A DNA stretch of 64,000 bases from Leptonemataceae bacterium (GTDB lineage: Bacteria > Spirochaetota > Leptospiria > Leptospirales > Leptonemataceae). Positions 24,057 to 44,138 of the stretch are shown piece by piece. The position numbers were made by a program, and so were the translations under genes. Each line of letters begins with the position of its first letter. Position 1 is the stretch's first letter. The stretch spans positions 2,176,001 through 2,240,000 of the forward strand of contig OZ245742.1 of the NCBI GenBank assembly GCA_965227295.1, read 5' to 3'. The notes below the pieces were generated by a model, which did not search any database, was not told the origin of the DNA, and saw only the letters and a list, made by a program, of their open reading frames with translations.

Positions 24057-24959
24057 TTAGCGTGTCCCTTCGTCTTCTATCGCTTCGCGGGATGCTTTCT
24101 TGTGATCAGCGTTCTGAAGGGTGGCGGAGAGCAAAGCGGGCGTGAGGATGTACCAGTCGTCCACCATTTTGGAGTCGTAAACAGAATCCTTGGGGTACTT
24201 GCGGTTCCATTCAATGCCTGCCGATATATCTTTAGCCGGGGCAATTGTTAAAATATTACTGTGGATGGATTTTGCAAACTTTGTACGAAAGTGCTCTTTG
24301 CCTTTGGGCCTGCCGCCTGTCGTTTTTATCTCCTCAAACAAGCAAGAACAAAAGCGCGCCGAGTCGATATTCGGATCTTCCGATTCACCGAAAACCTTCA
24401 AGATTATTTCGTCCGGCTTGTCCGTATCTACGCCTGACCAGGCCTTGCGTTGCGGGTCGTTTGTTTCGATCCAGGTCTTTAGGTCATCAATTCTCTTATT
24501 GATTTCTGTGCCGGACTCAATAGACTCCCCGCCCTCAGGGAGTTCACCCGGCAACGCATTTATACCGTTTAATTGAACGAAACGTTCTCGCTGTCGATTG
24601 TATTCTTTCGAGATGAAATATCGCCGTGCCGTGCAGCTGTTCTTTTCATCAACATTCGCATTCAGATAAAACGCGCCACCCTCTTTGGGTTCTCGTGTTG
24701 CTCCTTCCAGCACGACCCTTCGCAGCGGGTCCTCGCGCAGGCTTTCCGGAAGCCAGTTCAAAATGCGCGGGTCGTCCCCCGTAACCTCAGTTCCTGATCT
24801 CCACGCGTTACCTTTGGCCTTCAGCGCCGCGATGAACGCATCGATCAGTTTCTTGTAAGCATCCGCGGAATCCGAAGCCTCTTTGACCTTCCCATAGAAA
24901 ATCTCCGTATCCGCTTTCGGATCCCCGTCAAACGCAAAACAATCTTTCAACGCCATCAC
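24057..24959 (-). CDS. Hypothetical protein, last gene of the 20-kb operon (candidate second cargo or immunity/accessory protein)
   Basis: 300 aa, charged, no signal peptide; start overlaps the upstream stop (TGATG at 24954-24958); looks more AT-rich than flanks. Confidence 0.7.
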   Translation of the reverse strand: MMALKDCFAFDGDPKADTEIFYGKVKEASDSADAYKKLIDAFIAALKAKGNAWRSGTEVTGDDPRILNWLPESLREDPLRRVVLEGATREPKEGGAFYLNANVDEKNSCTARRYFISKEYNRQRERFVQLNGINALPGELPEGGESIESGTEINKRIDDLKTWIETNDPQRKAWSGVDTDKPDEIILKVFGESEDPNIDSARFCSCLFEEIKTTGGRPKGKEHFRTKFAKSIHSNILTIAPAKDISAGIEWNRKYPKDSVYDSKMVDDWYILTPALLSATLQNADHKKASREAIEDEGTR

Positions 24960-43400: not shown

Positions 43401-44138
43401 ACCGTTAAGTTTTTCCCGCGACATGCTGGTGTCGGAGGAAGTGAGTTCAGGGATAATCGTGCGGAGCAGGTCATCTTCCTGCTCGGAATTCCAGCCAATC
43501 ACCGAATATTTGAGATCATCACCTGCCTGGCCTTCCGGGTCGTAAAAACCAAAAACGCCGGCGCAATTCGGATAGAACGAAGAAAAGTTAATACCACCGT
43601 AACCCAATACGGTGAGGGGTTTGCCGTTGTTAAGTTTCTTGAAGCTATCGCCGGGTTGCGTGCCAGGATGACCGTATGCAGTTTTGCGACCCATGTACCT
43701 GTACGGCCGTTGCTTTGCCCCCGCGTGCGGAATGACACAGACCGGCTCGTCCGGGTCCACCTCTTCGGCGTGGACGAAGTCGCTTTCAATCAGCCATTGT
43801 TGTTCGGCCAGGCCACCGCCGTTGCGCGCTACCAGCCATCTGTTCGGAGCCGCCGGATACGTACCGGGATGCGTTTGCAAATTGTTCGGGCCCGGTCTCC
43901 CGAGAAAGTGAGGAACGATGAAGTGCAAGTGCATACCCGGATGGAGTGGGAAGCCGGGATTCGCAAACGGGGCATGCACGATTCCGCGGCTGACAAAAGG
44001 CTGCTCGAAGAAAAAGTCCGTGGACGAATCGCTCCAGGGGAGGCGCGAGTAATCTCCGAGGGGCGGCGCGGCCTGCCGCAGAGTCTTTAAGCAGAGTCCT
44101 TCGATTCGAAGGGGAACAATAATCCTGGATTCTTGCAT
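40494..44138 (-). CDS. Uncharacterised core protein A of DUF6603-type locus (1214 aa)
   Basis: Motifs GMHLHF, PAAPNRWLV, WLIESD, FSSFYPNC.GVFGFYD, LPPRLSQPARLNFRW, PVCGWL, GRPMAVVR, PIRLG..NDGLVGY, DPRG.VHATTGLLP recalled from DUF6603-neighbour proteins (unverified); no signal peptide. Confidence 0.7.
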   Translation of the reverse strand: MQESRIIVPLRIEGLCLKTLRQAAPPLGDYSRLPWSDSSTDFFFEQPFVSRGIVHAPFANPGFPLHPGMHLHFIVPHFLGRPGPNNLQTHPGTYPAAPNRWLVARNGGGLAEQQWLIESDFVHAEEVDPDEPVCVIPHAGAKQRPYRYMGRKTAYGHPGTQPGDSFKKLNNGKPLTVLGYGGINFSSFYPNCAGVFGFYDPEGQAGDDLKYSVIGWNSEQEDDLLRTIIPELTSSDTSMSREKLNGKLRNLFKLQLEVPDAEPWPLRKFRTLFFGEIQADASPPTERSKLQVSVGNTGTEALSALLADKMSNGKPERSTHKNLFESQLESILLHSGLEHHTIDVGPKFHEARHRQGFRAVTAGQLWKITTHHPDHIDAPAADQPELPSELAGPLQSLNMAQMMFDRSERKLITLRHQLYADWYRYMHARYPGIEGRGVFPDADHIQYFIETHSFAELEATIESTGIINGYDETNNFRPRIDKTGKADRANAVLNAWQRVSDLISLENERRRHHKASSFLALTMIDGPRYWEPRAPVLMIAGLDPANAESDGPPGDQYLTCPIIAFVGEADPVPADIADLREKVRHRIQPSQLSQQAWNPFLLDWEMDLVDTDLRHAGGAFEPDGLKRNVALAERGPDFEQRPEYVAGRLSVFSGSVIMSSHARQSLRRHIRSLIEISLKKDHIKFTDHHGIDDFLRARSEDVPALLHPDVLWEADPTRNPLETARLAYQKLDEMHVVSQTLNGFHHACIMLKKVAQLPVEEPIGFAAAKAFTGQVRELVANRRDSSPLPAFDFNPIRSGGLKLNRLRLIDNFGLIHDIDPTVTGLVAAETLRDGSKRDKPFLPPRLSQPARLNFRWLSAHPVSADVDEYADHVDFHTTNDHPDTSPVCGWLMADYLDNSVAVFSAAGTALGSIKADGTWDTPPWSERAPDLAGDITNPYLFNTVSRLTGSKTFLEAFLSATQNALEHIAPTNAHLFDTKWILMGRPMAVVRATISFELCGLPAMDQSWPALLADLHNCDAGAPWTYAKRYRRNWTAVKFPIRLGEHAQLNDGLVGYWIEDAYGGLGDPFFAPETSAIAGEDPRIDATGHQTRWRSPDDAPLNVTMLVDPRGVVHATTGLLPTKVISIPASHYLPVLRKFGLWFRTTPLLQPAPLPNAVAPGPLVLNTPAVSGFRWQWFDPRYGVRDLRTDDEKEHNHLESELVGGWLLLTQDRQ

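Follow-up and report, generated by a model that had tools for sequence, protein, structure and literature searches.

A widespread bacterial cassette of three large core proteins, phage-tipped fibres and a variable enzyme slot, seen in a Leptonemataceae genome

The described systems closest to the operon reported here are the extracellular contractile injection systems (eCIS) and tailocins (Afp, PVC, R-pyocins), the Tc (ABC) toxins, and the umbrella particles of Streptomyces. The operon lies in a 64,000-nt stretch of DNA from a Leptonemataceae bacterium (assembly GCA_965227295.1, contig OZ245742.1, positions 2,176,001–2,240,000 of the forward strand), which we refer to as the window. A preliminary description had read its seven open reading frames (ORFs) as a possible toxin-delivery particle: three core proteins (A, B and C), two fibres, a nuclease-like cargo (p4) and an orphan (p7). 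We find that this operon is one instance of a self-contained cassette of wide distribution that comprises A, a fibre, a variable enzyme, B and C. The gene set and its order are conserved, the fibre is a chimera, fibre tips and enzymes are swapped, B and C can be fused, and there is no kinship to known machines.

Like the cassette, eCIS and tailocins are chromosomal, carry no export signals, keep phage-type fibres with swappable tips beside their structural genes, and have a variable toxin cargo; the host range of eCIS overlaps that of the cassette in the Bacteroidota, Cyanobacteria and Actinomycetota. What separates the two is the contractile machinery: gp25/gp6-type baseplate proteins, spike/PAAR, tape measure and AAA+ ATPase were not found in the seven proteins or in 19 flanking ORFs. 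Scans of the seven proteins (Pfam, NCBIfam, PHROGs and PADLOC) and of the 19 flanking ORFs (Pfam) returned no sheath, tube, baseplate, VgrG/PAAR, RHS, capsid or integrase, in agreement with what had been noted earlier. Furthermore, the core proteins A, B and C have no tblastn match in a phage collection, and C has neither a solved nor a viral counterpart to its predicted fold. The contention that the core is distinct from the parts of phages, eCIS, type VI secretion systems and Tc toxins is thereby upheld for sequence kinship and, for C, for fold kinship as well.

Tc toxins also resemble the cassette, in having three large proteins, a large β-sheet component and an enzyme payload; TcB and TcC are sometimes fused, to which the B–C fusions described below are comparable. 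The cassette differs in that RHS, SpvB, VRP1 and TcA domains are missing from its seven proteins, from 35 relatives of A and from 58 relatives of C, and no Tc chain is among the 50 best listed fold matches of B or C. Its payload is a separate protein of 400–1100 amino acids (aa), not a C-terminal hypervariable region, and its targeting would proceed through a separate phage-like fibre. The preliminary description had itself named a match of the core to phage, eCIS or Tc folds as grounds for abandoning its reading; the models of B and C gave no such match, and no sheath, tube, baseplate, spike, RHS or Tc chain is found among their listed fold matches.

Umbrella particles are non-contractile multi-protein toxin particles with diversified lectins and polymorphic toxins, encoded by compact loci, all of which is reminiscent of the cassette, for which a particle is only proposed. 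They are reported to be secreted, to be built on one repeat-containing polymorphic toxin protein (UmbC, with UmbA and UmbB as partners) with lectin-tipped spokes, and to occur in Actinobacteria (PMC11062931). The cassette stands apart from this description through other core proteins, phage-type fibres, the lack of an export signal, and a range of at least 12 phyla. In polymorphic toxin systems, the enzyme is a C-terminal domain of the delivery protein and a small immunity gene comes next, whereas in the cassette the enzyme is a separate protein. We rate the cassette as new in kind, with a function that we infer: it showed none of the tested features of eCIS/tailocins and of Tc toxins. The identifiers DUF6603, PF20248 and IPR046538, which concern core protein B, were found in no paper of the open PMC and bioRxiv literature; keyword searches there turned up papers on other subjects, polinton-like viruses (PMC12220804) and engineered PVC (PMC13368577), and none on the cassette.

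Conservation and organisation of the cassette

The earlier statement that A, B and C co-occur in diverse bacteria could be substantiated, and extended to the fibre and a variable gene, in the best 80 of at least 462 genome stretches that encode a B relative; all locus counts given here rest on these 80. They were collected with a profile, built from an alignment of 13 B relatives, that was scanned against one genome per species of bacteria and archaea. By their record titles, the 80 loci span at least 12 phyla: Bacteroidota, Cyanobacteria, Actinomycetota, Acidobacteriota, Pseudomonadota, Verrucomicrobiota, KSB1, Chloroflexota, Planctomycetota, Gemmatimonadota, Desulfobacterota and Ignavibacteriota. 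Locus ORFs were called by a simple longest-ORF rule; phmmer searches of them with the seven operon proteins (E < 1e-3) located relatives of A in 65 of the 80 loci, of C in 72, of fibre 1 in 40, of p4 in eight and of p7 in three. Among the 45 loci with a full 10 kb on both sides, A, B, C and a fibre are present in 33, A, B and C in six, and A, B and a fibre in two; BC, AC, BC plus fibre and AC plus fibre occur once each, the ‘AC’ loci because the ORF caller lost B to an ORF on the opposite strand.

Two gene orders recur, A-fibre-X-B-C in 51 loci and B-C-A-fibre in 12; throughout the related loci the A gene is always beside a fibre gene, and C always follows directly after B. B and C form a single chain in loci L059 (3–6404) and L072 (7448–14029), of 2133 and 2193 aa, respectively, and a B–C fusion is probable in L070, where a 1500-aa ORF (9820–14322) ends in a full C. 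No further gene family recurs beside the cassette in more than four loci; thus neither a regulator nor an ATPase, and no gene for secretion, lysis or immunity, is a conserved companion of the cassette. The C family is a large one: 5,617 cluster representatives, among 1.84 billion, match at E ≤ 1e-3 (4,948 at 1e-10). Two plasmid-borne copies in RefSeq have B annotated as ‘DUF6603 domain-containing protein’ and its neighbours as ‘hypothetical protein’.

As to the copy in the window, the coordinates and junctions of seven co-oriented, tightly packed ORFs on the minus strand (24057–44138) were reproduced. The junction distances, in gene order from A to p7, are −31, +25, +27, −62, +3 and −4 nt; with gaps of at most 27 nt, no small immunity ORF fits between the genes, and no small neighbour recurs at other loci either. 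The protein database entry for B has 1669 aa and begins 21 codons later (at 31966). This is probably the true start, and it converts the 62-nt overlap of p4 and B into a near-abutment. Inspection by eye also picked out an internal ATG-ATG at codon 19 of fibre 1; a later start would shrink the overlap between A and fibre 1. Hydropathy analysis of the seven proteins found no signal-peptide-like N-terminus, again as the preliminary description had it, and no transmembrane helix. The sole hydrophobic stretch is in B (residues 1165–1185): it is conserved and Gly-rich, and it is predicted to be a β-hairpin inside the modelled sheet.

Core proteins, fibres and the enzyme slot

Core protein A (40494–44138, minus strand, 1214 aa) is the product of the first gene, B (26957–32029, minus strand) has 1690 aa from its longer start, and C (24956–26953, minus strand, 665 aa) is encoded directly after B. 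The three are mutually unrelated by hhalign, and their sequence and profile searches against the Protein Data Bank (PDB) came back empty. The single family match is the expected one in B: DUF6603 (PF20248) at residues 1038–1532, with 385.8 bits against a cut-off of 27 (E 3.6e-115). Neither A nor C, nor p4 nor p7, matches anything in Pfam, NCBIfam, PHROGs or PADLOC, and NCBIfam and PADLOC have no match for any of the seven proteins. The same is true of relatives: none of 35 relatives of A and none of 58 of C matches a Pfam family, save for one lectin insert; all neighbours of A in the Atlas are named ‘hypothetical protein’; and 47 of 48 diverse relatives (18 A, 18 C, 12 of the C-terminal part of B) are without a PHROGs match, the remaining one matching a functionally uncharacterised family marginally, over 20 residues. 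G, P and W make up most of the invariant residues in the three core proteins, and the family libraries report no NTPase or other enzyme domain in these proteins; the core proteins therefore look structural.

B combines a divergent N-terminal half with the DUF6603 all-β domain. The N-terminal parts of 59 of 63 relatives fall into one homology cluster, on which ground we rejected the idea that this half is a module that co-varies with the cargo. The model of B residues 841–1690 (57 sequences) has a predicted local distance difference test score (pLDDT) of 83.2, and a predicted template-modelling score (pTM) of 0.69, and consists almost entirely of long antiparallel strands, about 40 in number; as modelled, the DUF6603 part of B is a giant all-β sheet. 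Its nearest solved structures are the FimD usher, the SprA translocon of the type IX secretion system, Deinococcus SlpA, LptD and ApoB100, with which it shares long, meandering antiparallel strands. Nine PDB matches reach E ≤ 1e-3 (best 3.3e-4), with template-modelling (TM) scores of at most 0.22 and root-mean-square deviations of 20–40 Å; such weak scores against giant barrels and belts indicate an architectural analogy, not homology or membership. B also differs from giant β-barrels in having no signal peptide and in occurring in Streptomyces and Paenibacillus, which have no outer membrane. When searched with the AlphaFold2 model of C (58 sequences; pLDDT 86.3, pTM 0.82), neither the PDB nor the viral BFVD yielded a match at E ≤ 1e-3; the best TM score is at most 0.12, and only small Ig-like pieces align.

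Both fibres contain the Pfam Collar domain attributed to them beforehand, at residues 571–617 of fibre 1 (33.9 bits) and 1259–1303 of fibre 2 (27.8 bits; cut-off 24). Fibre 1 (38407–40524, minus strand, 705 aa) consists of an anchor at about residues 19–375 and a phage-type tail-collar tip. Fibre 2 (34302–38381, minus strand, 1359 aa) is its paralogue: residues 26–80 and 90–375 of fibre 1 align with 9–62 and 396–680 of fibre 2, whose anchor is split after residue 62 by a propeller-like insert of about 330 residues of repeats (63–395), followed by a repeated shaft and the Collar tip. Reg_prop is a further Pfam match of fibre 2. The shaft repeat is 384 nt long and present in 2.7 copies with 98% matches (35190–36234), two copies being identical; the blades of the insert are encoded by a 249-nt repeat in 2.8 copies with approximately 75–78% matches (37454–38162). 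Near-identical copies suggest recent expansion. An antisense ORF of 515 aa (34932–36479) is probably a by-product of the fibre 2 repeats.

Another key observation concerns the two ends of the fibre. Against 50,697 phage records, tblastn found nothing similar to the N-terminal 357 aa of fibre 1, whereas 1,087 records, with annotations as tail fibre or tail collar, matched its C-terminal 330 aa; tail-fibre PHROGs cover residues 527–705 only, and across the seven proteins the fibre tips are the only parts with PHROGs matches. The anchor, which is without a PDB match by sequence or profile, is conserved across cassette fibres, where it defines a family of 57 ORFs together with a partly overlapping cluster of 14. 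We conclude that the fibre is chimeric, with a dock peculiar to the cassette and a tip borrowed from phages. Phage receptor-binding proteins, namely tail-collar fibres and endosialidase-type tailspikes, thus have C-terminal tips homologous to those of the cassette and no counterpart of its 357-aa anchor. The prediction that the fibres vary also stood, since the tip domains differ among 55 relatives scanned with Pfam: Peptidase_S74 intramolecular chaperones in eight, Collar in seven (five above the cut-off), β-propellers in three, and a RicinB lectin and a T4 Gp10_C domain in one each. A Laminin_G_3 lectin is found in 22 of the 55, often inserted at the same site of the anchor. Tip and lectin domains of this kind characterise the trimeric receptor-binding proteins of phages and signify glycan binding.

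A side observation concerns loci L031, L048, L062, L066 and L080 (Acidobacteriota and Chitinophaga; order B-C-A), in which a Kelch-propeller gene follows A and no fibre is recognisable. The Kelch-propeller protein may serve as an alternative subunit for targeting.

The gene between fibre and B differs among loci. Candidate ORFs in the slot or downstream, counted from 150 aa upwards, numbered 96; we scanned 80 of them with Pfam, having dropped 16 short downstream ones. The matches are to unrelated enzyme families: Lactamase_B (11), Peptidase_S8 (six), Exo_endo_phos (three), Gln_deamidase_2 (two, from one locus) and Lipase_3 (one), with single instances of DUF4135, a GNAT/methyltransferase protein and a sub-threshold HNH; many have no family at all. 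The p4 family occupies the slot in eight loci. Profile–profile comparison did not find a domain common to the slot families, the only hint of kinship being that of p4 to the slot protein of L012 (63% probability over the motif described below). On a FastTree phylogeny of the C-terminal region of B (57 rows; a quick tree, so that the count of changes is approximate), the 44 labelled rows carry 15 slot types, whose distribution takes 23 changes; 300 shuffles gave a mean of 28.7 and a minimum of 24. The slot types retain some phylogenetic signal, but swaps are frequent, so that the proposed variability of the cargo is well founded.

In the window, the slot is occupied by p4 (31968–34274, minus strand, 768 aa), which has a C-terminal domain with a His-Me/HNH-like motif at about residues 520–768. 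The preliminary description had called this protein nuclease-like, and here the outcome is mixed. No Pfam match is returned even at E ≤ 10, nor is there any PDB match by sequence or profile, and of 191 relatives of residues 520–768 none has a Pfam domain and all those named are ‘hypothetical’. On the other hand, 45 aligned members of the domain share an invariant E-W-C-H-x2-G...N...G-S-x2-C-N-x-E-Q-L-x2-E-x3-R, in which H63, N77 and N86 of the domain have a spacing that by eye resembles that of HNH/His-Me fingers. Moreover, 22 of the 30 nearest named clusters of residues 540–768 in the Atlas carry Endonuclea_NS_2 (score 0.90), with Ntox4 and Endonuclease_NS also represented. From this motif and this lead, p4 is a likely but unproven nuclease.

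The label of orphan does not hold for p7 (24057–24959, minus strand, 300 aa). It lacks a match in Pfam, NCBIfam, PHROGs, PADLOC and the PDB; its residues 4–234 align to residues 5–254 of p4-like proteins of 1041–1106 aa (from L039, with two genes, L075 and L041), the remainder of which aligns to p4. It therefore corresponds to the N-terminal module of long-form cargo of the p4 family, a module that the intact p4 of the window does not have. Behind p7, a relic of 89 open codons (23810–24076, minus strand), in a different frame, aligns to p4 residues 672–736 with 46% identity (E 3e-16), and DNA repeats link the two regions (23910–23962 with 32119–32171, and 23990–24011 with 32211–32232). Together, p7 and the out-of-frame C-terminal relic behind it indicate a decayed second cargo gene of the long form, downstream of C, that lost its middle including the motif. 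The G+C contents of p4 and p7 are 0.525 and 0.505, against 0.58–0.61 for A, B and C; at third codon positions they are 0.58 and 0.57, against 0.68–0.75 for A, B and C and 0.785 for glnA. Values below those of the core and of a flanking housekeeping gene fit a recently imported payload.

Possible functions of the cassette

We tentatively read A, B and C as a scaffold that is aimed at other cells by the fibres and carries the slot enzyme as a damaging payload, to which we give a little less than an even chance. The process that we infer, from assembly and release through targeting and entry to toxicity, would run as follows. The three core proteins would build a large scaffold or container, in which the DUF6603 part of B would contribute a giant antiparallel β-sheet and C would sit on B; the single-chain B–C fusions support such a contact. 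Trimeric fibres would dock through their cassette-specific N-terminal anchor, probably on A, which the constant adjacency of the A and fibre genes suggests as the docking partner. Phage-type tips, together with lectin or propeller inserts, would direct the assembly to glycans on the surface of another cell. There the slot enzyme would act as the payload that damages the target: a probable His-Me nuclease in the window, and elsewhere a metallo-β-lactamase-fold, endonuclease/exonuclease/phosphatase (EEP), subtilase, lipase or deamidase protein. Since no protein bears an export signal, release would depend on lysis, in the manner of tailocins, or on some other route. The giant β-sheet is also a candidate for the container or the membrane-active element by which the payload might cross the target envelope. 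A bolder version, to which we attach only a small chance, would see in the core proteins and the fibre a protein-delivery system of a new class, with no relation to contractile tails, Tc syringes or umbrella particles: the sheet of B, capped by C, would be either a soluble container or a self-inserting giant β-barrel that, once the fibres have bound, carries or passes a whole enzyme of folded size through the envelope of the target cell.

Several points weigh against an enzyme carrier of this kind. The cassette has no conserved neighbour for lysis, secretion or immunity, and with no inhibitor gene a cytoplasmic nuclease needs explaining; payloads of 400–1100 aa are large for any known translocation route; and neither family models nor PDB profiles returned a match that would back the nuclease assignment of p4. 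About nine of the 51 loci with A ahead of B show no separate slot enzyme gene. As to the survey itself, the loci were picked via B, which makes the co-occurrence conditional on B, and the gene calls are crude, the longest-ORF caller having missed B in three loci.

Bearing in mind that all the proteins look cytoplasmic, and that nuclease-, protease- and lipase-type enzymes fill the slot with no immunity gene beside them, the cassette might instead serve anti-phage abortive infection: the fibre-like protein would sense phage inside the cell, A, B and C would be a scaffold or switch, and the enzyme would be a suicide effector. Variable enzymes of these types that lack an immunity gene are typical of defence effectors, and a few loci do have defence-type neighbours: L020 and L054 have mad2-like ORFs, and L030 has a DRT reverse transcriptase with PDC-S03. 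We nevertheless consider this unlikely, because none of the seven proteins matches a known anti-phage system in PADLOC-DB 2.0.0, defence neighbours are scarce, the family libraries report no NTPase or sensor-type domain in A, B and C, and the tips are of extracellular type. Indeed, matches to PADLOC occur in only nine of 141 flanking ORFs, mostly through generic HTH, TPR, WYL or CSD domains, so the cassette is not a resident of defence islands; and the Laminin_G_3, RicinB, endosialidase-chaperone and collar domains point to the binding of extracellular glycans.

Those lectins, and the degradative nature of the slot enzymes, would equally suit a non-toxic extracellular or cell-surface scaffold that tethers hydrolases to prey or polymers, via lectin fibres, for feeding or predation. 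By record titles, many of the hosts come from groups with a surface-attached or predatory way of life, among them Herpetosiphon, Saprospiraceae, Lewinellaceae and Chitinophaga. Against this, no part of the cassette has an export signal, payloads of the deamidase and His-Me-nuclease type are typical of intracellular targets, and a core of about 3,500 aa is excessive for a tether; such a scaffold seems to us improbable. Contractile injection systems of Streptomyces are reported to act on the producer itself. That the cassette likewise is directed at the producer or its kin, for regulated death or lysis in filamentous or multicellular bacteria, would account for export signals and immunity gene both being missing and would suit the many hosts that are, by record titles, filamentous cyanobacteria, actinomycetes, cable bacteria or Herpetosiphon, but diversifying receptor-type tips and lectin inserts have no obvious role inside a producer and the cassette is found in unicellular groups too, which leaves this the least credible of the alternatives.

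Should the cassette indeed prove to be an enzyme carrier aimed by fibres, it would add a major new type to the devices that bacteria use for antagonism or delivery; going by the representatives of the C family, thousands of lineages have the cassette. The natural exchange of its targeting and payload slots would also make it a candidate for a programmable delivery chassis. Even with another function, it brings to light two large families, A and C, that have no Pfam model, and it gives DUF6603 a genomic context; the fold of C, moreover, is predicted with confidence and has neither a solved nor a viral counterpart.

Operon ends and neighbouring genes

No tRNA gene is present in the 64-kb window, and no direct repeats that would mark an island were seen around the operon. 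At the operon ends we did not find a convincing promoter or terminator; one promoter-like site upstream of the operon overlaps the start codon of A.

Single related loci have neighbours that are not conserved across the set. In L003, a gene with a phage-sheath domain (15714–17342) lies 1.3 kb after C; in L002, a GH25 muramidase gene (14832–15632) follows directly after C and is not general among loci; and the Paenibacillus plasmid locus L081 has baseplate-V, DUF4280 and GH-E nuclease genes (1–5622) about 8 kb upstream. The mad2 matches to PADLOC beside the cassette are at 14565–15353 in L020 (E 2.5e-19) and 7420–8814 in L054 (E 3.5e-20), and a 263-aa ORF comes after C in L047.

The operon in the window is flanked by ordinary chromosomal genes, with glnA directly upstream. 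Downstream are an Lcl_C-domain gene (22571–23770), MgtC (21851–22558) and FG-GAP genes, one of them at 20347–21750, followed by genes for an MRJP/NHL protein (19170–20306) and a DUF5122 propeller protein (16079–17470). This downstream flank (13348–23770) is full of repeat and propeller proteins, likely of surface or secreted type.

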